63,875 bases of DNA from Narcine bancroftii (Eukaryota): assembly GCF_036971445.1 (NCBI RefSeq), contig NC_091478.1:19220001-19283875 (forward strand), written 5' to 3'. The first letter of the stretch is position 1; each line of letters begins with the position of its first letter. A model generated the notes under the pieces. That model was not told the DNA's origin, did no database searches, and saw nothing but the letters and a program-made list of their open reading frames with translations. The position numbers and the translations under genes were made by a program. Shown here one piece after another: positions 786 to 59,804 of this stretch.

Positions 786-1173
786 TAACCATAACCATAT
801 AACCATTTACGGAGCGGAAACAGGCCATGTTGGCCTTTCGAGTCCGCACCGGTTCACTGATTTTGTGCGCCCTCTTCAGGCATTGATCCCGGTAGATCTT
901 CATTCAATAACGATGGGCGAATTCAATGCAGATGGAATCAGTCGTGGAAGCTTAAAATGTTCTCTCTTGGACACAGGCAAATTCTAAGCTTTCCATTCTT
1001 TTTGTCCACAACGACGAGTGAACTCACCGACTCCATTTGATCATCTATCTTCTGAATCACGTCCAGGCTTTCCATCCTGTCCAATTCTGCCTTTGGTTGC
1101 TTTTGAAGTGCAAATGGAACTTTTCTGCATGGATGTATTATCGGTGGCACACGTTTATCCACTCTGATCGTGT
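786..1173 (-). mobile_element. Composite insertion: Gypsy RT fragment (~944-1173) fused to a ~155-bp element with a CR1-type GGTTATAT tail (786-943)
   Basis: HTIRVDKRVPPIIHPCRKVPFALQKQ..AELDRMESLDVIQKID..SSLVVVDKKNGKLRICL followed by REHFKLP is the N-terminus of a Gypsy RT. The host CR1 is collinear on both sides of the block. Confidence 0.75.
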
Positions 1174-1851
1174 GGTAGGGCAAATTCTATCATTTTGTAA
1201 TCACTGCCTTCTTTTCCTTCAGCTCCCTTATCAACTCTGGTTCGTTACACGATACCCACTCCTAAATTGCCATGTAGGCTCAAACACAAGGTGTTCGAAG
1301 ACGCCACCCTGAAGACATTCAATAAATTCTTTCTCTTGGGATTTAGGACCAAGCTGGTTTTCCCAGTCCACCTGCACATTGAGATTCCCCCATGACTAAT
1401 GTAACATTGCCCTTTTTGCACGCCTTCTCTATTTCCCTCTGTAGTTTGCACACCACATCCTGGCAACTGTTGGGAGGCCTGTTCATTACTCCCATCAGGG
1501 TATTTTTACCCTTACTGTTTCTTAATCCTACCCAAGGGATTTTATATCTTCCAATTCAAAGTCTCCAAAGGCTGAATTCCATTTTTAACCAACACAATCA
1601 CCCCAACCCCTCTGTCTACCTTCCTGTCCTTCTGATACACTGTGTATCCAAGGATATTTAGTTCCTGCTGTGGTCACCTTCCAGCCACACTCTGTGATGG
1701 CCACAATGTCATACTGGCCAACTTCCAGCTGCTCTACAAGATCATCAACCTTATTACTTATACTGTGGGCATTTAACTACAAAACCTACAGTCTTGTATT
1801 CACCACCTTTTTCAATTTGTTTCCAAAATAACCCAGTAAATTCTTCATCTT

Positions 1852-13628: not shown

Positions 13629-13639
13629 CGGTCCCCTCG

Positions 13640-13648
13640 CTAACCCAT
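13640..13648 (-). other. Minimal upstream ORF ATG-GGT-TAG (Met-Gly-stop) in the ADRA2A 5' UTR
   Basis: Read directly; out of frame with the main ATG and ending 11 nt before it. Confidence 0.7.
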
Positions 13649-13933
13649 CCACTTCTGGCCACTTTAGCAGGAATCACACCGTCGGCGGTAGCTGCAGCCA
13701 ACTCAACTTGCAGAGCGAGTCTGTCCCCTCCATCACCCCGGTGCTCAGCGCCAGTGACCTGGAAAGGCGGTCCCCCGGACTCCGGAGAGAGAGAGGGGGG
13801 CGGGGGGTGGCAGGTGTAGAGTGGGAAGTTTGCACTCACGAGGACAAAGCGCAGTCCGAGTTCAGGCAGCGCCAGGCGGAGTCGAACCAGCGGCAAGCAA
13901 CACCTTGTCAACACGAGCTGAGGTCCGCCGTCC

Positions 13934-14565: not shown

Positions 14566-15742
14566 GTACTTAAAGGTACAGTGCCCGGAACAAGGCGAAC
14601 CCCTGAATATTTTAAGCCCACTTTTCCGTGCTGTTTTAGGACATCAGTTTGCACTGGACCCGTATTGCCTGTCCAGGGTTGCATGAGAATGAATGGACAA
14701 AGAGAGTGGGGGCGAGTTCTTGTGGTTTTGCTGCGCGTTTTATAACGCAATTTGAGATCTTGGGAGCGAATCGCAAACAGTTCCGAGAGCCCGTTGTTTC
14801 CAGCGACCCACCTTTGTCTTGGGGAGGTGTAGAAATATCATAGGAGAGGGGCTGGATAACTGACTGAAGATACACCACTAGGAAATGGTTGGCTGTTTTC
14901 TTTCTCTGTGTTGCAATGTTCAGATCGTGTGGCGCACTGGGGTGTACCAGGAGCAGTACTGCTTTACCACTGGCGGCCAGCTCTTCGGGTGGTTGGCGGC
15001 TCACGTTAAACAGCGGGCCGAGCAGCATCTGGGGCGGCAGAAGAATGCTCGGGGTTCCAGCCGAAACTTCAACCTTCCCTTGGCCTGACCCACGGAGTTC
15101 CTGCAGCCGTTTGTTTGGGTTTTATTTTGCTCCACATTCTGCAATCTCCTGTCATGCTAAACGCATTCGCTTTGTCCTTATTTTATATTTATTCTAAGAA
15201 TGGTTGGTCCATAATTGCATTGAAACGCTCCAAGTCAATGAGCAACGCTGCAACTGCAGCCTCCCACCTATGGTGGTGCTCCAGTGCCTCCACTGGTCAA
15301 ATAGTGCAACTACACCGCATCACTGACTTGAATCAATCAATGTCCAATTACTTCGATGAAGGAGTAGCGAGTTCTATGTCGGAAATTGCTGACCTCAGCA
15401 GTTGGGTGACACGGCAGGTGGTACAGACGAGGTTGTGGTTCTCTCTGGATTCCGGATGCAGACGAGAATATTCTAAATTGTGGAAAGCGCCGAGAGAGTG
15501 GATGAGGGGAGAGGTTTAGAGGTTCTTGTACAGAAATCAAAGGGCGTTGGTGAACAGCTATTACCCATTAAACTTCCAAAGAATAAACTTTATTTCAGGG
15601 GAACTAGGGTGTAAGGATGAGGTTGTGCCTGCATGAATGAACGCCTTCAGTTCTGGGCAGTTTAGGAATACGTGATCGTTTCAGTGGAAAAGAATAAAAC
15701 ACAAACTCGGAGAAAAGGAGCAATGATCATTTTTCTCAAGTT

Positions 15743-16185
15743 ACAATTGGGTCTAGAGCAGTGATTCTCAACCTTCCCTTCCCACTCACATTTCTTTGGC
15801 TTGGCTTCGCGGACGAAGATTTATGGAGGGGGTAAAAAGTCCACGTCAGCTGCAGGCTCGTTTGTGGCTGACAAGTAATCCCTATGCCATCGTGCTTAAG
15901 GTGGTATGTGAGTAGGAAGGGAAGGGAAGGTTGAGAATCACTGTTCTAAACCCAATTATTACCGAAATATCTTACTTGAGAAAAATTGTCATTGCCCCAT
16001 TTCCTTTGGAGCTATGAAACCGTGCACATAACAAGTCAATTAGGTACGATTAATACAGTGGTTTTCAACCTTTTTCTTTGGACCTACATACCACTTTAAG
16101 CAATCCCTTGCTAATCACAGAACACCTATGGCATAGGGAGTACTTGGTGGTATGTGAGGAGAAAGAAAAACGTTGAGAACCACTG
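15743..16185. mobile_element. Composite hAT (Charlie/MER5-like) MITE with foldback structure
   Basis: Repeated CAGTG(G/A)TT(C/T)TCAACC TIR motifs; internal spacer is the reverse complement of that in the 57075 copy; left unit flanked by inverted aattgggtctagag / ttctaaacccaatt. Confidence 0.75.
15792..15876 (-). mobile_element. RTE LINE 3'-terminal 85-bp fragment inserted in the MITE
   Basis: Identical by eye to the 3' end of the 41473-44624 element. Confidence 0.9.
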
Positions 16186-17187
16186 AGTTAAAGTTTCAGA
16201 CCGGGATCCTTGATGAAGGGTGCCATCCCGAAGCATCAACCGTTCTATTTCTCCTACTGATGCTGCTCGACGTGCTGAGTTTCTACCAGATCCTAGTTTC
16301 TCGTGTGTCTCCAAGCTTGGAGATACATTACCTTAATGAGATGTATCGCTCAAATACAGTACAACTCCTTAAGGAATCATGTTTAAGATGGTTAAAGGAT
16401 TTTTTTTTAAAAGACGGATTTTAAAAAAAATGCAGGAGAATGGAAAGACTTCGCATTTAGAGTGTAGGAAACGTTGAATTAAAAGCAGATCGTGCTGGAA
16501 ACAGCATTTTTATTTGTTTTTGTTTAAGCCTATCGATGTCTACATCTTTTTTCAGTCACAGAGAAAACCTGGACTCGTTCCCCTCAAACAGTTGCTAATG
16601 CCGGGCACCAGGACTCTCACTTTTGCACTTTTTATTTTTTTTCCTCTTTTGTTTATATTTCTTGATTTGTTTACTTGTGGACGTGTGTGCAGGGATTTTT
16701 TTTTTTTTGCACCATCAATAAGCGGTAATCTGCCTGGCCTGCAGGAATCAAAATGTCATGTATGCACTCTGACAATAAATCCAAAATCAATTGCAACTTC
16801 CAAAAACTGAGGCTGTTTTTTTTTTTGTCCTTGGGAATGTTTGGGCATTCATTTCATTGTGCAACATAACAGGATTTGGTGCAGAATCCTGCAAAATAGG
16901 TACGAGATACAGATCAGCCATGAATGGGAAACCAAAATAAATTTATAGATCCTGGAAGATTGAAGTAACCACTGAAAATGTTGGAAATACTGAACCAATG
17001 AGAGATCATCTGTGGAAAGGAAAAGCAGAGATTGACCTCAAATGTTACCTCCTTTTCCTGACCTTCTGAGTATTTCCAGCAATTTTTTTTGTGCTTTCTT
17101 TGCAGATACTGACAGTAGGTTTGAAGGTTGATTTTTAATTGAAACGAGAATCTGCATGAATGTATTTCATAACAAGTTTTCTGCCTT

Positions 17188-17317
17188 NNNNNNNNNNNNN
17201 NNNNNNNNNNNNNNNNNNNNNNNNNNNNNNNNNNNNNNNNNNNNNNNNNNNNNNNNNNNNNNNNNNNNNNNNNNNNNNNNNNNNNNNNNNNNNNNNNNNN
17301 NNNNNNNNNNNNNNNNN
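17188..17317. other. Assembly gap (130 N)
   Basis: Run of N. Confidence 1.
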
Positions 17318-19954: not shown

Positions 19955-22900
19955 AGTAATATTTTTAAAAATCTGGCAATTTCAAAAACCCCAATTTATA
20001 ATCCCAAGTCAATATTTCCATGGAGATTCTAGCCACTTTTCCATTCTACAGGAACTTGCTGACACACCTATTGAGCAGTTTGAAGAAGCCCTGGAAGAAT
20101 GGAATGGGTAATGTCTGAAATATATATTCTTCATCCTTTACCCTCATCCCTCTAATATCCTCATTTTGTCTAATAGCCTGTGCTAACGGTTCTATACCCA
20201 ATGCAAATAGGGCTGGTGACAATGGGCAGCCCTGACGAGTTGATCGAGTCAATTTAAAAGCTAAAGATGTCACCACCCTAGCAATGGGGTTCATATATAA
20301 GGCCTTAGCCCAACCAATAAAGAAAGGGCCAAATTAAAATTTTTCTAATACCATAAATAAAAAGTCCCATTCAACTCTATCAAAAGCTTTTTTGGCATCT
20401 AATGCAACTACCATAGGATGATTAGGTTGCCGCCAATATGCATTGATCAAAGTAAGCAATCGAAGTATATTATCTGAGCCATTTCTATTCTTAATAAAAC
20501 CTGGTTGATCAATATGAACTAAGTTAGGTAAATATTTAGCAGGTCTATTAGCTAATACTTTTGCCATAATTTTATATTCTACATTCAATAAAGAAACAGG
20601 CTATATGAAGATACCTGTTAAGGATCTCTGTCTTTTTTTGGGATAACAGTTATTAAAGCACTTGAACATGTTTCTGGTAAAATCTGATCTTCAGTAACTT
20701 GATGTAACACTTCCCCAAATATATTAGAAAATTCATCATAAAATAGTTTATAGAATTCCACAGGAAACCCATCATCTCCTGGGGACTTACCATTAGGCAT
20801 TTCCTGAATAGCTTCCTTGATTTCAAAATCCGGAAATGGAGATTCCAACTCCTGAATATCTTTCTCATCTAGTACCAGTAACGTAAATTTAGATAAGTAA
20901 GAATCATATACTTCCCCTCAGAAGTATATAATTTTTGATAAAATGAATAAAACTGGTAATTAATTTCCTGAGGCTTATAGGTAATTATTGAATTCTTCTT
21001 AACAGCATTAATAGTCCAAGATGCCTGTTCCACTTTCAATTGCCAGGCAAGTACCTTACGAGTCCTTTCCCCCAACCAACTCATAATAATGTTGTTTAGA
21101 TCTATTAATTAAGCACTCAAACTGGTAAGTTTGTAAAGTATTATAGCGTAATTTTAACTTTGCTAATACAGCTTTTTTATCTTCTGTTATATCTTTCTGA
21201 AAATCTTTCTCTAGTTCAGTAATCTGATTTTCCAACTGTAAAAAATATAAAATTAATCTATTTTCAGACGATGTGTTGATATATTTGATAGAGCCTGAGA
21301 GATCGTTGAAACAATTACAGGAGTGTTTATCAAAATTTGGAGAATTGTCAGGATATAAAGTTAACTGGGATAAAAGTGAAATTTTGCCAGTTGGAGTAGA
21401 AGATTATTCTGAATTTTAAAATATTACAAAATTAAGATAGACGAATAAAATCAAATACTTAGGTGTGTTTGTGGACAATGACTATCAATCGTTATATCAA
21501 TTAAATTATGTACCTATATTGAGGTGGATTAAAGCAGACTTAACTAAATGGAAAGATATCCCATTAACTGTAATTGGATGTGTTAATTGTATTAAGATGA
21601 ATATCTTTCCTTGAATTCAATATTTATTTCAATCAATACCTTGTTTACTTTCAAATAGTTTTTTTCAGGATTTGAATAAAGCAGTACGAGAGTTTTTGTG
21701 GAAAGGTAAATTAGCTCAAGTAGCGTTGCACAAACTTACTTGGAAATATGCATTGGGTGCCTTACAACTGCCACATTTTCAAAATTATTATGAGGCAGCT
21801 CAGTTGAAGTTTATTAGTAGACTGATGGATTTGGATCAACCTCCAAGTTGGGCTATGGTGGAGATATCATGTCTACCTAGAACAGAGATGCATGGATTTA
21901 TATTCTGTTGGAATTTGATTTTATTACAGAAATATGATATGCCAATACTGAAACATTTATTAAAGATTTGGATTAAAAAAAATAAAATTTTAGGGTCGAA
22001 AGATAAATTATCAAATTAAACTCCATTATACAATAATCGGTTTATTCCTTTTTCAATGTTTAATAGTTATTTAAAGATTTGGAATTCTAAAGGTATAAAG
22101 ACAATACAGGACTGTTTTGTAGAGGACAATTTCTTTTATTCATCTGAGAGAACGATTTGAAATACCTTTAAATTATTTTGTATTATCAGCTTAGGGCTTT
22201 AGTAAAAGATAATTATGGTAGAGAGATGTATTTACCTACTTTGTCAAAATTTGAATCTTTTTAAAAAAAAATTAAATATTTTTAAATTAAAATTTTTATA
22301 TAATTTTTATATATAAAATATGTACAAACGTATCTCATTAAATTTACACAGTGGTCTTTTCTCCCCTTTCCCACCCTCCCACTTTTCCTCCCTCCCCTCT
22401 ACCCCCCCCTCCAAAAAAATGGAATCTTTGACTTCTACTATACCAAAGAAGGGTTATGTTTCAGTTATGTATAATTTATTACAGGACAATATGGATAAAA
22501 CAGATTGGGAAAAATCTAAACTTAAATGGGAGACTAATTTAATGTTTACTTTCCCTGAAGAGGATTGGGTGAACATGTGTCAGGACAATGTAATTAAATT
22601 GACTAATATAAGATATGGTATGGTCAATTATAATTTTTTTACATCAATTGTATTTGACCCTGGAAAAGTTAAAAAAATAAAAAAATATCGGATTCTTGCT
22701 TTAGATGTAGTTTATGTACTGGTACTTTTTTTTTAACATGCTGTTTGGACTTGTGTGAAAGTCCAACCATTTTGGCAAGAAATTAAAATTGTTTTGGAAA
22801 ACTTGTATAATTTTAAACTACCATTCGATCCAATTATTTTTTTGTTGGGAGATTTGCATTCATTAAAGAGCATGGGTTTGGATAAAGTTCAAATTGCTTT

Positions 22901-24385: not shown

Positions 24386-25155
24386 TTGCTTTTTACCTAT
24401 ATGCTGCCTTGTCATTGGGTATTTCCAGCAGTGTCGGCCTTCTTCCAGAGGACATTTGGACAAGGGACAGGGTTGGTGGACAAGACATCCTCACAAAAGT
24501 CTGTCAAACTTAATTGGAAAATATAACATGGACAGATATGCATTGGACAGATGGCCACATAGAAGGTACAATTTCATTATCTTCCTTATCTATTTTAAAG
24601 TGGGATGTATCATTTAAACCTTTATTATAGTGAAGATCTGAAGAACATGATAAAATGCGTAGGTATTAACCATAGGCACCAACACCAGAAATGAAATCCT
24701 CAGCAACTGGAGACAGTAGTCATGACGACGTACTCTCAAAAGTGCCTGATAATTTAAGGCCCAGCATTTCCAGCTGCTAACCAACTCTAGTGCTAACTCA
24801 AGTGCTAGCCGCTGGTATTGGCGGATTTACAGGTCAGAGATAAAGCTGGCCCATTGGTCAGTTAAAGGCACTGTGATTATGTTTAAACACCCAGTTGGAG
24901 AAGTGTGGCCTGGGGTGCTTGGGAAGCTTGGGTTGTGTGTTTAGCGGGTGTTTGGAATTAAATTCACTTACTAGAATAAAAGGTCCGTTTAGTTAATAAA
25001 TCATGTTTGCACCCCTGTGGTGGTGAAATCAGGTGGGAAGGGGAAGAAAGGAGCCAAGAGGTCATGAGGAAGGGGCAGAGGGCTGAGAAAAATGCACTCT
25101 GATTGGAAAGGAAGGGGTGTTGGGGGGGGGGGGGGGGTAGTGAGAGGAACTAAGG

Positions 25156-25328
25156 CAATGGTTCTCAACCTTTTGTTTCCACTCACATACCACTTGAAGT
25201 AATTCCTTACTAACCACAGAGCACCAATGGCATATTATAGCTAACTCATCTATGCTATAGGTGCTCTGTGGTTAGTAAAGGATTACTTAAGTGGTATGTG
25301 AGTGGAAACAAAAGGATGAGAACCACTG
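25156..25328. mobile_element. hAT-type MITE, single palindromic unit
   Basis: TIRs caatggttctcaacc / ggatgagaaccactg; 8-bp TSD aactaagg / aactaatg (7/8). Confidence 0.85.
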
Positions 25329-25344
25329 AACTAATGTAAAGAAA

Positions 25345-25620
25345 CATATACACAATGCTGGAGAAGCTCAGCAAGTCAAACAGTGTCCTTTACGTAGCAA
25401 AGATAAAGATACATAACTGATGTTTCGGGCTTGAGCCCTTCATCAAGGTAGGATTTTGTTCGGATGCTTGCTAGCATTTTCTCATACTTTGATGAAGGGC
25501 TCAAGCCTGAAACATCGGTTCTGTATCTTTACCTTTGCTACTTAAAGGACACTGTTTGACTTGCTAAGCTTCTCCACTTTTGTGTTTTTTACTTTAACCA
25601 CGTTGATTGCAGAATTTTGC
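25345..25620. mobile_element. Palindromic PLE-derived element: two inverted terminal repeats, each with a hammerhead-like core
   Basis: Arms ~25359-25447 and ~25489-25577 are reverse complements, ~40-bp spacer; cores TTGATGA-A-GGGC-tcaa-GCC(C/T)-GAAAC. Confidence 0.75.
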
Positions 25621-26659: not shown

Positions 26660-27055
26660 AAATTAATTGGAGGTCAATGCACAGGACTATAAGAGTGGCA
26701 GAGAGGATCACTGGAATCTCCCTCCACCCCATCGATATGATTACTGGGATCGTCATCTGAGGAGGGTGCGCAAAATCATTGAGAATCCCTTCTGCCCAGT
26801 TGAGCGAGAGATACTGGTCTATCAGAGCCAACACCACCAGGCTGAGAAATAGCTTTCCACAGGCAGTGAGAATGCTGAATTACCAAAGGAACTGCTCATG
26901 CTAACCATCCAAGGCTCTCATATGTACAAAACAGTATTTATTTATTTGTATATTGTATGTGTGTTGTCTGGTTGTGTGTCTGCATGTTTTGCACTGAGGA
27001 CAGGAAAATGCTGCTTTGTTGGATTGTACTTGAACAGATGACAATAACTTGACTC
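26660..27055 (+). mobile_element. Rex1/Babar-like LINE 3' fragment
   Basis: DRHLRRVRKIIENPFCP, downstream TTRLRNSF-like end, and tail gacaataacttgact. Confidence 0.6.
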
Positions 27056-27219: not shown

Positions 27220-28570
27220 GGCTGCAGACACTGTGATGCATTAAAAACACCAAAATACTGGAGAAACTCAGCTGGTCCTTTTCAGTATCTGTAGGAGACA
27301 AATATATTTTGCCAATGTTATGGACCTGAGCCCTTCTTCAAGGAAAAATCAGAAAAGGCAGAAGCCAGATAGATCAGAAAGTCTCAGAATTCAAACAATG
27401 GGGGAGGAATCCAGACCAACAAAAGGTGTTAATTGGATGTGATAAGGGACGAGGTAGAATTGATCATGTCTGTGAGAAAAGAGACAGGGAAAGGAGAGAT
27501 GATGGGGGAAGCAGGGGGTGATGGTAGTTGGGGTGGGGGTAAGTTTAATAAAACCAGAGATGTTGATATTAATGCTATCTGGTCAGAGGGTGCCCAGTCA
27601 GAAGATGAGGTGTTGTTCCTCCAATTTAGGATGAGGACAAATGAGGATTTCTATGTCAGATCAACAGAGATGTCCTCCTTCTTCAAAAATGTGGCTTTCC
27701 CTTTACCACCATCAAACTCAGCCCTCATCCACATATCCTCCATTACCCACACAGCTTCTCTGGCCCCCTCCACCCCCCCCTCCCCCCACATCCAACAAGT
27801 ATTCCTCTTGTCCTCACCTACCACCCTCCACATCCAACGCATCTTCCTCTACCATTTCCACCACCTACTACATGATTCCACCACTCAACACATATTCCCC
27901 TCTCCACCTTCTGCACCGCTCCTTCCATGACTCCCATGTCCGCTCCTCCCTCACCACCATTCAGGGCCCCAAACAGTCCTTCAAGTGAAGAAACATTTCC
28001 CTTGTGAATCAGCAGGGGTCACCTGCTGCATCCCATACTCCCGTTGTGGTCTCCTCTACATCAGAGAGACTGGATGCAGACTGTAATATTGCTTTGTTGA
28101 GCACCTCGGCTCTGTCTACCACAATAGTGTGGATCTCTCCCAGTGGCCACCTGTTTCAATTTCTCCATCCCATTCCCTTGACAACATATCTGTCTGTCCA
28201 TGGTCTCATGTACTGCCAGATGGAGATTGGAGTAAATTGGAGGAACAACACCTCATCTTGCGACTGGGCACCTTCCGACCAGATGGCATTAATATCAACT
28301 TCTCTGGCTTTTGTTAAATTCCCCCATCCCCTGCTTTCCCCATCATCTCTCTGTTCCCACAGACATGATCAATTCTACCTCGTCCCTTATCACATCCAAT
28401 TAACACCTTTTGTTGGTCTGGATTCCTCCCACCATTGTTTGAATTCTGAGACTTTCTGATATATCCTGCTTCCGCCTTTTGCTTGAAGAAGGGCTCAGGC
28501 CCGAGAAGTCAGCAACGTGTCTTTGTCGCCCATAGATGCTGAAGGGGCCGGCTGAGTTTCTCCAGCATCC
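27220..28570 (+). mobile_element. Penelope-like element with inverted pseudo-LTR (inverted copy ~27220-27630; sense body ~27640-28570)
   Basis: GIY-YIG region remnants (YIRETGCRL, KLEEQHLILRLGTFRPDGININFS). 27373-27474 is the reverse complement of 28358-28460 apart from one indel. Confidence 0.8.
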
Positions 28571-35662: not shown

Positions 35663-36066
35663 AATTCAGTACTTTGAGTAAAATTCAGTTCCATTTCTAC
35701 CCATGGAGGGTGGTCAATTAGATTATCGAAGTATAACAAAAGAAGCAAATTGCATATATTGCCCGCCCAGTAATAAAATCTAAAATTAGGAAACACCAAT
35801 TCACCATTCCTTTTAGCTTTTTGAAGATGAGCTTTATTTAAGTGGGAGTTTTTCTCTTGCCATATGTAGGAAGATATTATCGAATCCAATGTCAAAAAAG
35901 GATTTGGGAATTAAATTTGGTATAGATTGGAAAATATGCAAAAATTTAGATATAATGTTCATTTTAATAAATATGACTATTCATGGAAATAGATAAAGGC
36001 GACCATCTTGATAGCAGTAATTTGAACTGATTAAATAAAGTAGAATTTTTTTTCTTTAAAAAGATC

Positions 36067-36312
36067 AAAGCTTGCTGCAAGAACTCTTTAAATTCTGCTG
36101 ATACAAATTGTGGGCCATTGTCAGAAAATATTGAACTGCACGTTTCACAAACATTTCTATGACTGATTCCACCTGCATTGAATTTGCCCATCGTTACTGA
36201 ATGAAGATCTACCGGGACCAATGCCTGAAGAGGGCGCACAAAATCAGTGAACCGGTGCGGACTCGAAAAGCCAACGTGGCCTGTTTCCGCTCCGTAAATG
36301 GTTATATGGTTA
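36067..36312 (+). mobile_element. Composite insertion: antisense Gypsy integrase fragment plus the same ~155-bp CR1-tailed element as 786-943
   Basis: 36161-36312 matches the reverse complement of 791-943 with 6 transitions. The adjacent minus frame reads IFSDNGPQFVSAEFKEFL (integrase core). The host L1 is collinear across the block. Confidence 0.8.
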
Positions 36313-38525
36313 TAACACTTAGTAATTGTAATTCCGAGATCGGTAAATTGATCCTTCACAATCTTAAAAGGAAAATTCGAATATCTTGATGTAGAAGCAT
36401 TTAAAGGTAAAAGTTCACCTTATACCCAGAAAAGTGACTAATTTAAGAAAACAAAGCTGATCTGCTTGGTAAAGAAACATCTGGATTGGATACAAAAAGC
36501 AAAAGGTTATCTGCATATGAGGAAACTTTGGTTTCAATGCCGTTCTTATGGATCCCTATAAAATTTTTACTTTCTCAAGAGCAATTGCTAGAGGTTCTAA
36601 TACCAAGTCAAAAAGTAAAGGACAACCTTGACGAGTACCCCGATGAAGATTAAAATGTTTTGATTGTTGAAAATAGGACATAAATATAATAATTTAATAA
36701 AATAGAGTCCATCTCTGCATCCAAACTGGCAGGAGTGGAAGGTAAATATAAACCATTCAATAAATGGTTTATATTAAAATAAGAATAACAGTTTTTAATA
36801 AAACTGGTTTGATCTTCAGAAATTATTAATGGTAAAATATTCTCCAATCTTTGGGCCAATATTTTAGACAAAATCTTCATATCTATATTAAGTAAAGAAT
36901 AGGTTTCTAAGAAGCACATTCAAATGGATCCTTCCCTTTTTGTCAAAATAAGAGAAACAAAGCTTCATTAAAAGATGATATTTAAATGTGTCATTAACCA
37001 CAAAACTTAGTTGGGATACAAGCAATTCTTTGGGGTACCCATCAGGTCCTGGAGATTTACCATATTGTCAGATACTGAGTTCAATATCCTTACCATCCTT
37101 CAGAAAAAGAAAGACCATCAGTTCTCCAACTCCTTCTGTTCAAGGAGAAGGTTTTTCCTGATTGTCCCACCAAGCCTTCACTCTTTTACAGACCATGATG
37201 AAATCTCTCTCTCGCCTTGTTAACCTCAAGAAAACAACCCAGCCCAACCAACTGCACAACTGAAGTGTTCCCATCATGGTGACTCCCTATGAATGTTTTT
37301 AATAGATTCTGCTATATAATGTATGTTTGAAATAATCTATTTACTCCTCGCAAGACCAATTTTAATCATCCATTCAAAATGATAATGTCTTCTATTTAAA
37401 GCAGTGGTGCAGGTCTTAGGGTAGATGCTTCACAGCATCAGCCATCCAGTTTCACTAATGGCTGCCTATGTTGTCTGACCTGATGTTTTTATGTTTTCTC
37501 TGTGACCATATAGATTTCCTCTGGTTTATTCTCTTGCACCCCAAGAACATGCAACTAAGACCAAGAATAATGGTTGTTTATTCAGGAAAAACAGATGAGG
37601 GTCATGTGATTGAGTCACTTGATGGGGACACAAAGAAACAGAATTCAGTTTTGATCAGCAAGCCATCTGATAAACAGAGGTGGAATGACTCTGTGTGTAA
37701 ATGGACATTTCTGCTGATTCTCCTTGTCAGGGGAATTATTGAACTGCTGAGACCATTGTAACGGTCATTCTGATTGACCCATAAATGGGTAGCGGAAGCA
37801 GTCAAATTCCGGCATTGGATCATGACCATTGTGATAGTTATTTTGACTGACCCGTACCTGGGTTTTGGAAGCATCATGGAAGTCACATGTTTCATTTCCC
37901 CTGCGCAAGGAAAAGGGGAGTTGAGAAAATCATATGAAAGGACATTTCTCTGGAAGCAATTCAACAAGGATTCATGAGTTTTCAGCAGTCTGATTACTCA
38001 AAGCTCTTTCATGCAGTCAAAAAACCTGTGTAAGGGCAGAGTTTCTCCTCCCATACTTCGAGAGCCACCTCCATGAATGTGCCATGGCCGACTCCAAGAC
38101 GCTGCGCTCTGCCACCTAGCATGAATGTAATGTAGCTGCAAACGGCTGGCTAGGGGCAGGATGATGACGTCGTGAGCCTGAGACACAGGAGTGGGGCTTT
38201 TAAAACACTTCAGGGAACTGCAGTGGATGCTAAGCTTGCATACAGTCTGTGTGGAGTTTGCACATTTTCCCCATGTCTCTGGGGCCTTTTTTCTGCCTAT
38301 AGCTTCCTAACCTGCATCCCAAAGATCTCCTGGCAGGTTAATCAGCTACTCTAAGCTGCCCACTGGTTCAAGTAATTGTAAGGGAATGAAAGGGTATGTG
38401 AGAAAGATGATGTTTTTAACCTCAAACCAATATATTAAGAGTGATGGCGTATCTCTGCTGGGAACAGACATTGACCTGATGGGGAAATGGCCTTCTGTAA
38501 TGTAATAAGTTAGATCCTTTATTAT

Positions 38526-40844: not shown

Positions 40845-41380
40845 CATAGAAAGGTTGTTTCCTATGGTGGGAAAGCCTAGGACGGTGGTTCTCAACCTTT
40901 TTTACCCCAATCACATACCACCTTAAGTAATCCTTACTAACTACAGAGAGCCTATGTAATAGGTCTCAGACAAGAGGGTACAACTTCAGGATTGAAGTGT
41001 GACCACTAAGGAGAGAGATTCGGAGGAATTTATTTAGCCAGAGGGTGGTAAATCTGTGGAATTTGTTGCCACAGGTAGCTGTGGAGGCTGTCATTGAGTG
41101 TATTTAATGCAAGTTCTTGAACAGCCAGGGCATCACATTCACATACCACCTTAAGTAATTCCTTACTTACAAATTACCTACGCCATCCTCTGCCATAGGT
41201 ACTCTGTGGTTAGTAAAAGATTTATTAAGGTGGTACATGACTGGGAAAAAGAGGTTAAGCATCACCGTTATGGGTGAAAGCCCAGGTAGTGGGGCTGAAT
41301 GGGGGAATGGATCAGCTCAATGGCAGGGCAGACTTGATGGGCTAAATAGCCTATTTCTGCTTCTATTTCTTATGGTCTTA
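40845..41380 (+). mobile_element. CR1 3' fragment carrying two partial hAT MITE insertions (~40883-40962 and ~41135-41267)
   Basis: CR1 3' text (tttagccagagggtggtaaatctgtggaatttgttgcc..; tail cttatggtctta) broken by MITE halves bearing TIR-like ends. Confidence 0.65.
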
Positions 41381-41472
41381 AAATACACTGAGAAATAAAA
41401 AGAATTACATTATTAACAAAATAAATATTCATAGTTAGATAGTACAAACAAAAATGCAATGTTACTTGTGAT

Positions 41473-44400
41473 CTTCTTTCTTTGGCTTGGCTTCGCGGAC
41501 GAAGATTTATGGAGGGGGTAAAAAGTCCACGTCAGCTGCAGGCTCGTTTGTGGCTGACAAGTCCGATGCGGGACAGGCAGACACGATTGCAGCGGTTGCA
41601 AGGGAAAATTGGTTGGTTGGGGTTGGGTGTTGGGTTTTTCCTCCTTTGCCTTTTGTCAGTGAGGTGGGCTCTGCGGTCTTCTTCAAAGGAGGTTGCTGCC
41701 CGCCAAACTGTGAGGCGCCAAGATGCACGGTTTGAGGCGTTATCAGCCCACTGGCGGTGGTCAATGTGGCAGGCACCAAGAGATTTCTTTAGGCAGTCCT
41801 TGTACCTTTTCTTTGGTGCACCTCTGTCACGGTGGCCAGTGGAGAGCTCGCCATATAACACGATCTTGGGAAGGCGATGGTCCTCCATTCTGGAGACGTG
41901 ACCCATCCAGCGCAGCTGGATCTTCAGCAGCGTGGACTCGATGCTGTCAGCCTCTGCCATCTCGAGTACTTCGACGTTAGGGGTGTAAGCGCTCCAATGG
42001 ATGTTGAGGATGGAGCGGAGACAACGCTGGTGGAAGCGTTCTAGGAGCCGTAGGTGGTGCCGGTAGAGGACCCATGATTCGGAGCCGAACAGGAGTGTGG
42101 GTATGACAACGGCTCTGTATACGCTTATCTTTGTGAGGTTTTTCAGTTGGTTGTTTTTCCAGACTCTTTTGTGTAGTCTTCCAAAGGCGCTATTTGCCTT
42201 GGCGAGTCTGTTGTCTATCTCATTGTCGATCCTTGCATCTGATGAAATGGTGCAGCCGAGATAGGTAAACTGGTTGACCGTTTTGAGTTTTGTGTGCCCG
42301 ATGGAGATGTGGGGGGGCTGGTAGTCATGGTGGGGAGCTGGCTGATGGAGGACCTCAGTTTTCTTCAGGCTGACTTCCAGGCCAAACATTTTGGCAGTTT
42401 CCGCAAAGCAGGACATCAAGCGCTGAAGAGCTGGCTCTGAATGGGCAACTAAAGCGGCATCATCTGCAAAGAGTAGTTCACGGACAAGTTTCTCTTGTGT
42501 CTTGGTGTGAGCTTGCAGGCGCCTCAGATTGAAGAGACTGCCATCCGTGCGGTACCGGATGTAAACAGCGTCTTCATTGTTGGGGTCTTTCATGGCTTGG
42601 TTCAGCATCATGCTGAAGAAGATTGAAAAGAGGGTTGGTGCGAGAACACAGCCTTGCTTCACGCCATTGTTAATGGAGAAGGGTTCAGAGAGCTCATTGC
42701 TGTATCTGACCCGACCTTGTTGGTTTTCGTGCAGTTGGATAATCATGTTGAGGAACTTTGGGGGACATCCGATGCGCTCTAGTATTTGCCAAAGCCCTTT
42801 CCTGCTCACGGTGTCGAAGGCTTTGGTGAGGTCAACAAAGGTGATGTAGAGTCCTTTGTTTTGTTCTCTGCACTTTTCTTGGAGCTGTCTGAGGGCAAAG
42901 ACCATGTCAGTGGTTCCTCTGTTTGCGCGAAAGCCGCACTGTGATTCTGGGAGAATATTCTCGGCGACACTAGGTATTATTCTATTTAGTAGAATCCTAG
43001 CGAAGATTTTGCTTGCAATGGAGAGCAATGTGATTCCCCTGTAGTTTGAGCAGTCTGATTTCTCGCCTTTGTTTTTGTACAGGGTGATGATGGTGGCATC
43101 ACGAAGATCCTGAGGCAGTTTACCTTGGTCCCAACAAAGCTTGAAAAACTTATGCAGTTTGGCATGCAGAGTTTTGCCGCCAGCCTTCCAGACTTCTGGG
43201 AGGATTCCATCCATACCTGCTGCTTTGCCACTTTTCAGTTGTTCGATTGCCTTATATGTCTCATCCAGGGTGGGAACCTCATCCAGCTCTAGCCTTAGGG
43301 GCTGTTGAGGGAGCTGGAGCAGGGCGGAATCTTGGACTGAGCGGTTGGCACTGAAAAGAGATTGGAAGTGTTCTGACCATCGGTTGAGGATGGAGATCTT
43401 GTCGCTGAGGAGGACTTTGCCGTCTGAGCTGCGCAGCGGGCTTTGGACTTGGGGTGAGGGGCCATACACAGCCTTTAGAGCCTCGTAGAAACCCCTGAAG
43501 TCGCCAATGTCCGCGCTGAGCTGTGTTCGTTTGGCGAGGCTAGTCCACCACTCATTTTGGATCTCCCGGAGTTTGCGCTGAAGATGGCTGCATGCGCGAC
43601 GGAAGGCTTGTTTCTTCTCTGGACAGGACGGCTTTGTAAGGTGAGCCTGGTGGGCAGCTCGCTTCTTTGCCAGCAGCTCCTGGATTTCCTGGCTGTTTTC
43701 GTCAAACCAGTCCTTGTTTTTCCTGGAGGAGAAGCCCAGTACCTCTTCAGTGGATTGCAGTATGGTAGTCTTCAACTGATCCCAGAGGGTTTCAGGGGAC
43801 GGGTCCGTGAGGCGGGTTGCAACGTCGAGCTTTGCTTTGAGGTTTGCCTGGAAGTTTCCTCTCGCTTCGCCTGACTGCAGGTTTCCAACATTGAACCTCT
43901 TTCTGGGGGCTTTATTGTTCCTGGGCTTTGGCTTGAAGTGAAGGTTGAGCTTGCAGCGAACCAGCCGGTGGTCAGTGTGGCATTCCGCGCTAGGCATGAC
44001 CCTGGTGTGGAGCACATCTTGTTTGTCACTTTCTCGCACCAGGATGTAGTCCAGGAGGTGCCAGTGTTTGGATCGGGGATGCATCCAGGTGGTCTTAAGG
44101 CTGTCCCTCTGCTGAAAAAGGGTGTTTGTAATGACAAGTCGCTGTTCTGCGCAGAGCTCCAACAGGAGGCGCCCATTGTCATTGCACTTGCCGACGCCAT
44201 GCTTGCCCAGGATTCCTGGCCAGGTTTCTGAGTCTTTGCCGACACGAGCGTTGAAGTCGCCCAGGATGACAACCTTGTCGGCTGTAGGGGTACGTTGGAT
44301 GAGGTTGCGCAGGTCGGTGTAGAACTTGTTCTTTTCTGCTGGTTCCGCCTGGAGGGTTGGAGCATAGACACTGATGAGGGTGATGTGACGCTTGTTTTGA

Positions 44401-44872: not shown

Positions 44873-46056
44873 AGACTATAGTGCAGATCTTCAGTTCTGA
44901 AGTAGCTTATGGTTCATCTTAGAGCAGCACGAAGTTTGGGGGGGGGGGGGGGATTCAAGAGCCTGATAGCTGTTGAAAGAAAAACATTCTTGAACCTAGA
45001 AGTTCAGAACTTTAACCTATGTGTGGGAGAGATTTTTTATATGTTTAAATATTAATTCCTCCTCACGCGTCTTCAGATGGCGATCCAAGGAGGGCAAGTT
45101 AGGCATCAGCAATTTCTGTTGACCATTTAAGCATTGTTGGCTGATCATTTGTTAACATGGATGCTGCCCGACCTGCTGACTCCTTCCAACACAGGGAATA
45201 AATTTCCTGCTCTTCATTATACTTCCAAGGGACTTTCTTTCACAAGCATCTGGAAGAGTAGACAGGACTTTATTTTAACACCTCATCTGAAAGACATCAT
45301 CTCTGAAAGCTCAAACCTCACTCGGGGATGGGTGACAAATATCAATCTGGCTTTTCTGAGATCAAATCACAACCTTCTGACTCAGAAGCGTGCTGTCATA
45401 ACCACCTTGAAGCCAATACTGACACCAATATTGTGAATGAATGCGAGCCATTGCCATACACTGTTGCTCTTACTTGATACAAAGTATAATTCAGAAAGAG
45501 AAAAAATAATAAATATACAGGAAGGAAAAAAAAATTCACATTTGGGAAAAAAAAACCTTGATTCAGTGGTACAGACAGATCTTTGGTGATCTCGTAGCAG
45601 TGTTAGTTCTTGAATGATACTGGGAGTTTCATGAGCCTGCCAGCGTTTGGATAAAAACTGTTCTAGAACCTCAAGATGCTGGACTTTAGGGTTCTGTATT
45701 TTTTGCCAGAAGGTTGCAGCAAGGAGTAAGTACGACCAGAGATGGGGGCTTTATGATGTTGGCTGCTTTTTAAAGTCAGTGCCTCACATGGAGGCCTTCA
45801 ATGGACAAGAGGTGGATGATCATAATGGACTTGGTTGTGCCTGGCACTATTGTAGCCTTTTGCATCCCTGGGCATTTGAGTTTCCAAACCAAGTCATGGT
45901 GCAACCAGTAAAATTCTTTCGATGGCACATCTGCAATTTGAATCAAGTATTTGATTACTTGCCAAATCTCTCCTCAAATTGCTCAGAATCTAGAAGCACT
46001 GGTGTGTTTTCTTCATGTTGCCTCAATATGCTGGATGATTGGTGTTAATTTTCAGG

Positions 46057-46666
46057 TCTTCTTTCTTCTTTGGCTTGGCTTCGCGGATGAAGATTTATGG
46101 AGGGGTAAATGTCCACGTCAGCTGCAGGCTCGTTTGTGGCTGACAAGTCCGATGCGGGACAGGCAGACACGGTTGCAGGGGAAAATTGGTTGGTTGGGTG
46201 TTGGGTTTTTCCTCCTTTGTCTTTTGTCAGTGAGGTGGGCTCTGCGGTCTTCTTCAAAGGAGGTTGCTGCCTGCCGAACTGTGAGGCACCAAGATGCACG
46301 GTTTGAGGCGATATCAGCCCACTGGCGGTGGTCAATGTGGCAGGCACCAAGAGATTTCTTTAGGCAGTCCTTGTACCTCTTCTTTGGCGCACCTCTGACA
46401 CGATGGCCAGTGGAGAGTTCGCCATATAACACGATCTTGGCGAGGCAATGATCCCCCATTCTGGAGACGTGAACTACCCAGCGCAGTTGGATCTTCAACA
46501 GCGTGGATTCGATGCTGTCGGCCTCTGCCATCTCGAGTACTTCGATGTTAGGGATGAAGTCGCTCCAATGAATGTTGAGGATGGAGCGGAGACAACGCTG
46601 GTGGAAGCGTTCTAGGAGCCGTAGGTGATGCCGGTAGAGGACCCATGATTCGGAGCCGAACAGGAG
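46057..46666 (-). mobile_element. RTE LINE 3' fragment (~610 bp), slightly diverged copy
   Basis: Collinear with 41473-~42095, with substitutions and small deletions. Confidence 0.92.
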
Positions 46667-46794
46667 CTTTTGTAATTAACATGATTATACAAACATTTAA
46701 TGGGAACGTTACACAAAACCTTTACACAAATGACAAAAGGTCACAAAGTCTGTGTATGGATCCATGATGTTTTAACTAAGTGCAATTATTTTTA

Positions 46795-51504: not shown

Positions 51505-51559
51505 TTCTTTTTCTTTGGCTTGGCTTCGTGGACGAAGATTTATGGAGGGGTAATGTCCA
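51505..51559 (-). mobile_element. RTE LINE 3'-terminal 55-bp fragment
   Basis: ctttggcttggcttcgtggacgaagatttatggagggg matches the RTE 3' UTR. Confidence 0.85.
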
Positions 51560-51954: not shown

Positions 51955-53558
51955 GAGAGAGGAGTGAATTGTATTAAAATTAATATTTTTCCAAGAATAC
52001 AGTACCTTTTTCAATCTATCCCTTGTTTCATACCTCAAAAATTCTTTAAGGATTTAAATTTAGTTACACGTAAATTTTTGTGGAAAGGTAAGATGAATAG
52101 GGTATCTCGAGAAAAATTGACATGGAAATTTGAATTGGGAGGATTACAACTTCCCCATTTTCAGAATTATTATAAGGCAGCACAATTAAAATTTATAAAT
52201 GCAATGTTTGATATGACAAAAACTACTGCTTGGTTAAAATAGAATTGGATAAAATTGATGAAAATTCTATCATGGAACTTATCTATAAATGGAATTCAAA
52301 ATTATTAACTGGAATAGACCCACTAATTTGAAAGCATTTAATTGAATTATGGAATAAAATTGATTATCGGACAGGTTGAAAAGCTAAGATCTCAATGAAA
52401 ACATCTTTATACCAGAATAAACTTTCTTTTACTGTAGATAATCAATTTCTGAAAGTTTGGAATCAAAAGGGAAATTAAAAAAAAGTTGAAAACTGTTTTG
52501 AAGCTGGGAAATTTTTGTCTTTTAACCACATGAAAGATAAATTCCAAATTTCTTCAAATACATTTTTTTTCTTATTATCAAGTTTTTTTTTAAAACTAGA
52601 ACAATTAGGTCATGATTTAAAACTACCAAGACAGTCTTCCTAACAATTACTTCTAACTAAAGATGATTCGAAAAAATTTATTTCTGAAATGTACAAGTTG
52701 TTACAAAATAAATGGCCTAAACCTGATCTTCATAGATCAAAAATGAAATGGGAAGTGGATTTTGAAAGATGGATGAAAATGTTTGGAGAAATACGTGTAA
52801 AGATAGTACGACGAAGGTAATGAACGTACGTTATAGATTAGTGCAGTATAATTTCTTACATCAGATGTATCTGACTCCATTGAAATTGAAAAATTTTCAG
52901 CTTAGTTCTACAGATTTATGTTTCAGATGTGGCCAAAAGGTAGGTACTTTATTTTCCATTCGACATGAACTTATCCTAAGGTTAAATGTTTTTGGTTGCA
53001 AATTCAATTATTTTAAGAGCAGATATTAAAAATAAATTTACCCTTTGACCCAATGTTGTTTTAACTAGGAGATATTAAATCGATAGCTTTAAGATTGAAA
53101 TTAAATATGTATCAAATTGAATGTTTTATCATTGGAAGTTTCTAAAAAGTGCTTGACTATTACATGGAAATGGGATTTGAATTTAGGGATGAAAAGATGG
53201 CATATAATGAAATGAAAGCCTTTATTCCTTTAGAAAAGATTGCATGCAATTTGAGAGGTAAATTTTTTTTAATTAAAGTTTAGAGCCCTTATTTGAAAAC
53301 TATTGATATTAAAATGTGAGGTCCTGGTCCTGATCCTGGATGTCTCTGCTCCTGCAGCCAAGAAGCATTTAAGTTAGAACATTGTAGTATTAAATAATGA
53401 TCTCCTTTTTCTTTCTTTATAGTTGGGGCAGGGAGGAGGGAGGGTAGTAGTTGGGAGCTTTTTTTAAATATATAAAAATGATTAATCACACTATGTATGT
53501 ACCCAATTGTAGTAACTAGGTTTGTGATGTTCAATTTTAAATGCAATATTAAAAAATA
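51955..53558 (+). mobile_element. L1-clade ORF2 3' fragment
   Basis: VNCIKINIFPRIQYLFQSIP..GGLQLPHFQNYYKAAQL, VQYNFLHQMYLTP..CFRC; same family as the 21240-23340 segment. Confidence 0.8.
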
Positions 53559-56060: not shown

Positions 56061-57074
56061 GAACTCTATGGGCTAAATTGAAGATATTGTTATTCTGGTC
56101 ATATACCATTTTCCTGCATTGGGTTTCTAACTTTTCCAAGCCCTTCCTATCAATATATTTGTCCGAAAGTCCTTGAATGACATGATTTGGTTCCACTTTC
56201 TCTGCCAGCTCATTCCAGACCCAGACAACTCTCTATGAAAAAGATACCCCTTTAAATCCCTTACCAATCTCTCCCCTCTTACCGTAAACCTATTGAAGAT
56301 TAACCTAGCCTACAAAGGCTGAGCATGCTTTATCCATGCCCCTGATCATTTTATGTATTTGCACGATCATCCAGCATCTCAAGCAAGCACTTATTCTTGT
56401 AAAAATATGTGAACAGAGAATGGAATTTTTGACTTCTCTCGAATTGCACAAGCACCTATGCTCCCAACTAGCAAATAAAGCCCATGACTCAAGATTTATT
56501 AGTGCTTTCTTAAATATGCACACAAAATAAAATTTACCGTATAAAACGAGGAAAATATTTTTCATCAGTGGGTGGCAGAATTTTGTAATGCACTGAATTA
56601 ATTGCAAGATTTCTGTTATTCACAAGTAGCAATGAACAAAGGAAGAAATCCTTTCTTCAAGAAATCGGTTTTAAAAAGATTGCTGCAAGTTTACAAAAAC
56701 CTTATTCTAACCACTTTTGCAATCAATTGTAGTACTATAGCAAGTTAAAAGTCAAGACCACGTAATTACCACTGTTTTGTAAAACCCGCACAGGTTTCCA
56801 TCACTTTTCCCTCAATGTTTTCCATTGGCGAGCATTTTCACAAATTCATGCTTGGGCTCAGAGGAATGTAATTTGTAGCTTCTATTGACAGTTATTTGGT
56901 GCTCATTGTCAATAATTGCCTTGAAATTATGGGTTAAAAAAAAAAATCAGACCAGCAAGATTGGAACTGTTAATTTCTGGTGAAATACAGCTTAATGTAA
57001 TGTTGTGCAATTGAATTATCTGAATCTATTGCTCAAACTACATTAAAATATAAACTCAAGGTAAAATTTCAGGG

Positions 57075-57438
57075 CAATGGTTCTCAACCTTTTTCTTTCC
57101 ACTCACGTACCACTTTAAGTATTCCCTGTGCCATGGGTGCTCCGTGATTAGTAAGGGATGGCTTAAGGTGGAAAGAAAAAGTTTTAAAACCACTGTTTCA
57201 ATCGTACCTCATTGACTCGTTATGTGCACGGTTTCATAACTCCAAAGGAAATGGGCCAATGACAAATTTCCTCAAGCAAAATATTTCAGTAACAATTGGG
57301 TCTAGAGCAGTGATTCTCAACCTTCCCTTCCCACTCACATCCCACCTTAAGCCATCCCTTACTCATCACAGAGCACTGAAGGCATAGGGATGACTTAAAG
57401 TGGTATATGAGTGGAAAGAAAAAGGTTGAGAACCACTG
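57075..57438. mobile_element. Composite hAT MITE (two units plus ~115-bp spacer) with 8-bp TSD
   Basis: TIRs caatggttctcaacc / ggttgagaaccactg; TSD tttcaggg / ttttaggg (7/8). Confidence 0.85.
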
Positions 57439-59659
57439 TTTTAGGGAATGTAACATTTCATTCTTTTACATTTTAGACCATGGTAGATTTGTTACTATAT
57501 TCTGGGTTATGCAGAGTTAAAATAAATGATTTGATATCCAGGCTTTGTCCTAAATTTATCAAAGGTTTAAGGGGAGTGAATAGCAATGCAATTTCCCACT
57601 TCCTCAAAACAGAAATTAAAGCTACTTCTAGTAGAAGCATAGTTGGTTTGCATACATGACACAAACTAGGTGATCAACTTATTATTGGCACACCAGTGGA
57701 GCTTTCAGCAGACAATTCCTGAGCTCCAGTCAATTTCTCAGTAACTATACAGGGGATCAAAAATAATATTGTTAGTGCCAAATTTAACCAAAGTTTTACA
57801 AAGTGCCCAGTTCAAACTTTTAATTCCTGGAAAAATTAAGATAAACTTGGAGGAGTTGCATCAGTCAAGTTTGAAGAAAATAGCCCTTCTATAGTGCCCA
57901 GACAATGTGTTTTAAACCATTTTGCAAAAGGAATGAAGCCAGCTCGCTTTCATCGGTCAGTGTTGCACCATGCTGTCTTAAAGCTACTGCTGAACAACCC
58001 ATCATTTCAAATCTGTGCCAACTCTGCAACTCTTCGCCACTTAGAATGAAGTTAATGTTTAATTCTGTTCATATTTTTCCTCACAGAAGAGATACATTTT
58101 GTCTGTTTGCAGAGGTATTCAGATGAAAACTATAAGCATCCCATATCTAATTTGGACCTTTCAATTTCAGCTCAAAAGTGAAGATATTGGTGACTTACAA
58201 ATTTAAGGCATTTCAACACCCGCTGAAGGCCTAACAATTGTTGGTAAAATATATATTTACTTTCAATATGCCAAGCTTTATCTAAATCATCTAAAGGCAA
58301 AACAGCCTTTAAAAGTTAAGGTAATCAGAATCAAACCACAGCTCAAGTCAGATGGATTGTAAGCGAATTTGACCTGAATTGTAGCACTCTTCTAGTCCCG
58401 CTCAAAGAATTTAGTATTCATTTCACAATTGGCACTCACTGAAACTTTAATTTAAAAATATTTTTAGGATCTGGGTGTTGCCTGCAAGTCCAGCATTTAA
58501 TGCCATTCTTCACTACCCCTCCAGGAGGTGGTTCATAATGGCACACCCATAATATTGAGCATGAATTCCAAGATTTCAATCCCACAAAGGGCCAGTTATA
58601 CATTTCTCAGTTAGGATGGTGTGCAACTTGGAGGTAGCGATGTTGCCACCTGTCAGCAAGTCTTGGTCTCTTGATGATAGAGTAACTTGCTTTGCAGTTT
58701 GTACATTGAATGTATGACAATCACTTGGTACAGTTGGTGAATAGAACATCAGGAGGCATTTGACATTCGTAACCTAATATGCACAAGCATTTTTGTTAAA
58801 ACTAAGACACATAACAGAAGTGAAGAAATGTTTGGAAGTAGGAAAGTGACAAGTTAAAATTAGAAATGATAACACTCAATATTACATCATGTTATGCATG
58901 TTGAAAAAATGTCACAGGTTAACAGTGCATTAATGAGATGTTTCAACAATTTGCTTTTATAAAATTAAGCCCGAAACAGTAAACCATGAAAAGTTATTTT
59001 CATAAATTGAATGGTCGTGTGCTGAAATTTTAGCTATGCATTTTTTCTGCCCGTCAACTCTTGTTAACACTAAAATCTATTACTTGGGATCTGCATTAAA
59101 AAAAAGGTTACTTGATAGTTATATTGGAAATAAAAAAAATCCCAAACCTGAGAGCTTGGGCTTGTCCAAATAGCTGAGAGACTAAACATAGTAAAAGTCA
59201 CCAAATTAGTTTAAAGGAAAGAATGAGAAGAATGCAGAAAACTGGCCAGATCCCCATTTATAAGAGCAGCTGGCCAAGCAATGTTTCTTTTAAAAAAGGA
59301 GAAAGAAAAATTAAATCTAAATTACTTAAATATGGTATGTAACTAAACAATTTAGAAGTTGTTTTGATGTGCAGGAATAACTGAAAATTTTGTTACTAAT
59401 TCTTCGACGTTTCTTGTCGTGAATTCTGCATTTTGCGTAGTTTGAAGGTGGGGAAAAAGAGTCAACTTTCTTACCATTTTCTTGCTGCAAATCATGTCCA
59501 AAGCCATGACATTTTGCAATTTGCACACTGTGTTGATGTCAATGTTACACCACTTAGAAGTCATCAACTAAAGTATTTCAATTCGTTACCGAAGAGTCCA
59601 AGATCGCATTTATTTAACCACTCACAGGACTACACCATGAGCATTGCAGTTCATTCCAG

Positions 59660-59706
59660 AAGGGCCGACATGGCCTGTTTCCGTGCTGTAAACGGTTATA
59701 TGGTTA
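59660..59706 (+). mobile_element. CR1-type 3' tail of the GGTTATAT family
   Basis: gggccgacatggcctgtttccgtgctgtaaacggttatatggtta. Confidence 0.7.
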
Positions 59707-59804
59707 AGGGTAAGTGTACCTTAGCCTCAAACTTTAGCTGAATGTGTGACAATAATTTTTATGTTTGGGGTAAATGCCAGTCTCCCATTCATTAATGACG
59801 ATGA

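Follow-up and report, generated by a model that had tools for sequence, protein, structure and literature searches.

Two copies of an abundant short repeat in Narcine bancroftii carry different Gypsy pol fragments at their 5' ends, one of them antisense

Within a window of 63,875 nucleotides from Narcine bancroftii (the whole stretch of DNA analysed here), two long copies of one repeated unit each carry at the 5' end a different piece of putative Gypsy pol, namely a reverse transcriptase (RT) fragment in copy 1 and an antisense integrase fragment in copy 2. In copy 2, cargo and unit together fill one break within an old L1 ORF2, and the unit as commonly copied does not include the cargo. We put at roughly one half the probability that the Gypsy piece of each copy came from a separate RNA or cDNA, added as the insertion was being joined at its 5' end.

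Table 1. Features of the two unit copies, their cargos and the surrounding host sequence (positions in the window)
Feature	Position	Strand	Evidence or remark
Copy 1 of the unit	791..949	-	Truncated ~25 bases further 3' than copy 2
Copy 1 cargo: predicted Gypsy RT fragment in the sense of the unit	945..1174	-	Internal frameshifting gap of ~22 bases close to the unit junction
Host L1 ORF2 remnant, downstream of break	35700..36065	-	tblastx to L1-like remnants at 21591-21836 and 51973-52188
Copy 2 cargo: putative Gypsy integrase core fragment, antisense to unit	36066..36131	-	Pfam, tblastn, profile; bridged host/cargo junction
Cargo/unit junction zone, probable short imperfect overlap	36122..36131		Integrase codons IFSD at 36131-36120
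Unit 5' part, origin not recognised	36129..36186	+	Summed depth 2e3 to 7e4 in X3; X8 record 25 on 36134-36221
Unit middle, resembles ORF2 end of a presumed L2-type LINE	36187..36250	+	Alignment to LINE remnant ~26727-26782
Unit 3' tail with a short terminal ATGGTT-type repeat	36246..36313	+	Common to another element
Host L1 ORF2 remnant, upstream of break	36306..37249	-	PDB LINE-1 ORF2p matches, E ~1e-5; contig joints omit the insert
Tail-only relative	59659..59712	+	85% to tail; no L2-like middle or Gypsy piece detected

A preliminary description of this DNA placed a copy of the unit inside an L1 ORF2 reading ITKCY..DLFKE across the insertion, and we confirm this placement. The residues ITKCY and DLFKE of the host lie on either side of the copy 2 insert, and four of the five PDB matches of the host are named LINE-1 ORF2. 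On the minus strand, the host also gives tblastx matches to other L1-like remnants in the window; the part downstream of the break, searched alone against PDB, yields no match.

The limits of the insertion were drawn from contigs of four of nine public sequencing runs (three studies) placed on 35950-36450. Runs X3 and X4 derive from one sample, which may be the source of the assembly, and run X8 comes from a different organism (organism B). Among the 15 contig joints listed, 13 omit the whole insert and the remaining two fall in the tail. The tightest joint passes from 36063 to 36306 with 2 letters shared and implies an insert of 242 bases at about 36064-36305; the last 8 bases of the tail repeat (36306-36313) are therefore identical to host sequence at the break. 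A single insertion thus stands as first described, but its 3' edge does not, since this joint makes 36306-36313 either host sequence or sequence common to host and tail. Copy 2 accordingly presents at most 2 duplicated target letters together with an 8-letter identity between tail and host. Such an identity is what annealing of a tail repeat to its target, as in CR1-group insertion, would give. Between the cargo and the unit of copy 2, no L1 sequence, LTR or separate flanking duplication was seen. The host/cargo junction is spanned by a contig with 0 differences across 35950-36110 (X3 and X4, one sample), and this junction is therefore real in that sample; bridging contigs speak against an assembly artefact at this position. 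Among the contig pieces listed, none bridges the cargo/unit junction.

The unit itself is abundant, dispersed and tapered toward its 5' end. In X3, summed contig depth drops in the 5' direction through 7.7e5 (36273-36289), 4.8e5 (36239-36255), 1.5e5 (36188-36204), 3.5e4 (36154-36170), 9e3 (36137-36153) and 2e3 (36120-36136), with 90-724 on the copy 2 cargo and 5 for the locus's own contig; such summed depth does not equal copy number, and overlapping short contigs may inflate repeats and so exaggerate the taper. The taper has the same shape in all four runs. Because 448 X3 contigs run off 36312-36315 into unlike flanks, there must be many dispersed insertions, and the unit displays the dispersed copies, fixed 3' end and variable 5' ends of a TPRT retroposon. 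It is likely a short non-autonomous element moved by a CR1-type LINE enzyme. Organism B also has the unit, with X8 records on 36134-36221, 36161-36253 and 36221-36314.

The two window copies share 159 nt at 95% identity (36155-36313 on the plus strand versus 949-791 on the minus strand; 8 differences), and copy 1 carries the commonest letter at 5 of the 8 sites that differ. The unit appears to be a composite. Its middle, which we take to be of L2 type, aligns with a LINE remnant at about 26727-26782 with a score of 41, whereas 300 local shuffles reach no more than 34 and 20 whole-window shuffles no more than 37; against two other related LINE remnants in the window, it gives nothing above chance. 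A related LINE remnant at 55049-55318 matches PF09004 at E=0.0023, below the cut-off. The 5' part (36129-36186) finds no match above shuffle level in the rest of the window. The tail, presumably of CR1 type, is common to a second element, since 66 X3 contigs diverge at 36246 into different upstream sequence. Depth rises just ~5% across 36246-36272, where the tail-sharing element joins. The composite unit may therefore outnumber its presumed partner LINE, a figure that L2-like copies could inflate. An L2-like coding end joined to the tail of another element may represent an abundant composite of an undescribed family.

The tail is predicted to fold into a hairpin of -18.8 kcal/mol (z=-0.96), and 28 of 200 shuffles are equally stable. 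ARAGORN and Rfam return 0 matches in the window; because both copies are 5'-truncated, no tRNA or Rfam-type head is seen. An open antisense frame in the unit was rejected as coding and treated as chance, protein searches having returned either nothing or three unrelated repetitive proteins. Exact-pattern scans give 0 matches in metagenome contigs, prokaryote genomes and viral contigs.

Comparison of the window with the contigs separates the cargo from the unit. Two organism B contigs agree with the window from 36129 onward; their loose end is similar to it in the last few letters only. Among the loose ends listed, sequence unlike integrase lies upstream in at least two X8 contigs (from 36129) and at least one X6 contig (from 36136), so that the unit elsewhere reaches ~25 bases further 5' than the stretch common to both window copies. 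As these copies extend 5' and then enter non-integrase sequence, the cargo falls outside the unit as commonly copied. Nor is the copy 2 cargo co-amplified with the unit, for in X3 the summed depth of the copy 2 cargo lies ~1000-fold below that of the tail. The two cargos attach to the unit at different points (the equivalent of ~36155 versus ~36129) and in opposite orientation, and the DNA common to both amounts to 8 letters at most. None of the 15 joints listed links cargo to unit or switches strand. Copying of cargo from the 2-kb flanks was considered and rejected, as the longest matches, 10 and 9 letters, fall within the range of shuffles.

One X8 contig, with a depth of ~2.8, lacks the common letter at 36185 and 36197, as does copy 2. 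X8 record 25 (depth 2.83) covers both sites, and the bin 36069-36085 has a depth of 2.81; by this depth arithmetic, the organism B contig possibly represents an orthologous insertion that includes the cargo.

That the copy 2 cargo is antisense integrase and not RT, as the preliminary description read it, is borne out by a match that is weak yet above controls. From 36131 to 36072 on the minus strand the piece reads IFSDNGPQFVSAEFKEFLQQ. Pfam matches rve at E=0.0033 and 18.1 bits against a curated cut-off of 32.6 (one of seven stretches matched), and the best tblastn match has E=0.001 with 55% over 22 residues. A profile built from 15 full-length Gypsy pol proteins gives the piece 11.0 bits; the highest of 12 local shuffles scores 3.4 and the reversed window -0.3. 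Two integrase matches in PDB (E ~0.1) and an rve-rich top match in the Atlas (0.81, a level reached by one third of shuffled proteins) serve as leads only. X3 depth forms a plateau of ~700 over 36086-36119, and this stretch therefore recurs elsewhere in the genome. Measured up to the boundary shared by both copies, the cargo would run ~90 bases; it is only ~66 bases long, because the unit extends 5' to ~36129-36136. A second integrase piece, based on a zinc-finger-like reading at 36133-36160, was discarded, since contigs assign that stretch to the unit and the profile gives it no score.

Judged by protein similarity, the copy 1 cargo is clearly predicted to be Gypsy RT: at 1174-962 it shares 82% identity over 71 aa with the best Gypsy pol (93.5 bits), and 33 of 51 candidates are significant. 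Relative to the reference proteins, its frame shifts from ..LCPR to REHFKLP, and at the internal gap six letters can be read both as the end of one piece and as the start of the next. Such a pattern is what polymerase jumps leave; a later deletion is also possible. The cargo ends at ~945, where a few imperfectly matching letters overlap the unit. The presence of Gypsy pol on both long copies and nowhere else in the window, a further point of the preliminary description, was upheld, in that the profile finds just these two places and a five-motif scan, the sole coverage of other LTR clades in the window, finds the integrase motif only. The LTRs, primer site and 4-6 bp duplication expected of a Gypsy LTR insertion are absent; there are just pol fragments of 66 and 230 bases, and no flanking repeats or LTRs were seen around either.

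For the question of whether one Gypsy family supplied both pieces, 10 reference pols were compared (two of 12 planned and three others of 15 were left out, their motifs unparsed or not tried). Close pairs of pols (n=8, at least 53 of 71 RT residues identical) have 11-15 of 20 residues identical in the integrase segment and distant pairs (n=28) have 9-14 of 20, overlapping ranges, so that a segment of 20 residues does not separate close from distant pols. The integrase piece in the window shows 9-12 of 20 identities to all 10 pols with no trend with RT closeness (Spearman 0.04, n=10), and has L at a site where all 10 references have A or S.

A single break, an overlap between tail and target, a 5' taper and a private cargo are all observed; which enzyme acted, when, and how the cargo was captured we infer as follows. 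A LINE enzyme would have primed reverse transcription at the break on the tail and halted near 36129. The other end of the break would have been joined via the Gypsy piece of ~66 bases through short overlaps, either by top-strand priming on a second RNA or by end-joining of a cDNA scrap, both of which permit antisense cargo. Copy 1 would represent an independent event of like kind, in the sense orientation that a template switch would give. The cargo itself would be a private passenger for which no function is expected. Of the origins proposed in the preliminary description, recurrent capture from Gypsy RNA or cDNA fits best; the word recurrent, however, covers two copies in a window chosen for its odd look. 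Capture must take the presence of Gypsy pol on both of two long copies as coincidence, aided by abundant Gypsy RNA or cDNA and by the selection of the window.

The other origin first proposed, one longer chimeric master, is weakened in the form of Gypsy pol directly attached to the unit, in view of the cargo depth, the different join points, the opposite orientations and the contigs that continue upstream; a longer source transcript, with Gypsy further upstream, stays as a reading. Here a single source locus would yield one transcript in which a Gypsy element precedes the unit and perhaps provides its promoter, and rare copies would jump within the RNA. Copy 1 would then carry sense RT by internal deletion, copy 2 inverted integrase by twin priming, and most copies would truncate inside the unit. 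A locus of this kind accounts for two Gypsy cargos out of two with no coincidence, and pol lying upstream in sense would be expected to give just this pairing of sense RT with inverted integrase. It also agrees with the lack of a tRNA or Rfam-type head in the window, and the identities of the integrase piece are compatible with one donor when set beside those of close pairs. Against it stand the ~1000-fold lower depth of the cargo than of the tail, the joints listed, 0 of 15 of which link cargo to unit or change strand, and the at least three contigs among those listed whose upstream part is unlike integrase. The integrase piece is, moreover, no nearer to the closest relatives of the RT piece than to remote pols, and departs from all ten references at the L site, and twin priming within a single RNA is mainly a trait of mammalian L1. 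We regard such a source locus as unlikely, although it is the alternative that survives best.

Slightly more doubtful still, and speculative, is the idea that the unit family is transcribed inside a Gypsy element or packaged with one, and that LINE machinery systematically spreads pol fragments, sense and antisense alike, by leaving them 5' on the copies of the family. If true, LTR and non-LTR retroelements would be permanently coupled in a vertebrate germline.

It is quite improbable that the association arose through separate events, with Gypsy scraps already in place, through break repair or as decayed insertions, and the abundant unit later landing at their edge by chance. The abundance of the unit would permit landing almost anywhere, and break repair with pol scraps of LTR elements can proceed without a LINE (PMC4516963). 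Separate events require, however, that the unit hit precisely the border of a scrap twice (66 and 230 bases), each time with its tail end abutting host; the terminal repeat of the copy 2 tail matches host and not cargo, and no LTR or separate duplication was seen around either piece. Independent pre-existing Gypsy insertions in particular are unlikely because cargo and unit fill one break without L1, LTR or a separate duplication between them. Least probable of all is that the 66-base piece is a chance motif match in filler DNA, which would leave copy 1 as the only real chimera: its 20-22 residues fall below the Pfam cut-off and its PDB and Atlas leads are of a low order, but its profile score stands above every shuffle, its frame is stop-free with the conserved SDNGPQF..EF motif, and the depth plateau marks a stretch repeated elsewhere in the genome.

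By analogy, the capture of separate Gypsy RNAs or cDNAs that we prefer would work like known 5'-chimeric LINE insertions combined with cDNA capture at breaks, that is, as a known repair-and-copy accident and not as a new kind of element. According to PMC4476161, template switching yields sense chimeras and is the only route to chimeras for L2 and RTE LINEs, whereas antisense chimeras arise when a second RNA is used in twin priming. PMC2104539 gives same orientation and a full-length 5' part as features of template-switch chimeras. Because the former limits L2 and RTE chimeras to template switching and the latter lists same orientation, the antisense copy 2 needs a route other than template switching. 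Like the LINE template-switch chimeras presented in these sources (U6/L1, U6/L2, U6/RTE and SINE chimeras; WEIRD/MGL in Magnaporthe; PMC4476161, PMC2104539), both loci would fuse a foreign RNA-derived piece to a 5'-truncated, LINE-tailed element. The same orientation required there (PMC2104539) is present in copy 1 and absent in the antisense copy 2, and whereas those chimeras carry a full-length small RNA, the window has internal pol fragments cut at both ends and no clear long target duplication. Copy 2 lies outside the strict template-switch definition, and neither copy is a Gypsy insertion.

An inverted cargo inside one insertion, the mark of twin priming, is present in copy 2. Its tail is presumably of CR1 type and at most 2 letters are duplicated, unlike in twin-priming chimeras, which involve mammalian L1 with target duplications. 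The likeness to U5/L1 and U5/SVA (PMC4476161) is that one insertion combines a truncated retroposon with an antisense cargo on its 5' side.

Truncated pol pieces of LTR elements are captured at breaks with microhomology and are strongly enriched over their genome share, as reported for RMDR in mouse zygotes (PMC4516963). That system resembles the window in its doubly truncated pol fragments, lack of LTRs, short microhomologies and joining of several pieces, and enrichment over genome share would be a further likeness; RMDR differs in starting from a Cas9-made break and in needing no LINE-tailed partner, whereas the cargos in the window are attached 5' to a tailed element. About half of the copies of zebrafish ZfL2-2 have extra 5' nucleotides, many derived from flanking DNA (PMC4245944), so that here, too, a CR1-group insertion has foreign sequence where its 5' end was joined. 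Those extras comprise several nucleotides, often from the flanks, whereas the cargos here measure 66 and 230 bases and do not come from the flanks.

As a composite of parts of two LINEs, the unit is like the SINEs with LINE-derived middles and exchanged tails of PMC5786205 and like the HE1/HER1 pair of PMC3747384. The accessible text of PMC5786205 names the 5' regions of RTE and Vingi alone as donors of middles, in contrast to the middle here, which resembles an L2-type ORF2 end. General background on the abundance and truncation of CR1-group elements is found in PMC13343379 and PMC5389967. No literature report of Gypsy pol cargo on a CR1-tailed element, or of this unit, was found in a search that had Repbase, Dfam, subscription papers and supplements outside its scope.

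If capture were systematic, CR1-group insertions would be completed with whatever germline retroelement RNA or cDNA abounds, antisense included, and the cargos would date past Gypsy activity; it is chiefly in mammalian L1 that antisense cargo has been described so far. Should the two copies be a coincidence brought out by selection, they would represent ordinary 5' junction filler.

The window holds several further repeats. A young family occupies 15791-15876, 41472-42095, 46060-46666 and 51505-51559, with 86 bases at 100% between two copies and 624 bases at 92%, and RT-like reading frames lie by it near 46000-46700. Palindromic, MITE-like repeats with long inverted arms occur in at least five places (4971-5049, 15712-16194, 25150-25337, 40876-41268 and 57073-57444). 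A second inverted-repeat family, at 25350-25585 and 27255-28568, has arms of 104 nt at 89% and 376 nt at 79%, and one of its pairs encloses ~600 bases. Positions 17188-17317 are a run of 130 N. On the minus strand at 12399-13652 lies an intact single-exon ORF of 417 aa whose best PDB matches are alpha-2 adrenergic receptors (E 4.5e-156); by this homology, the predicted alpha-2 adrenergic receptor gene marks the window as vertebrate DNA.
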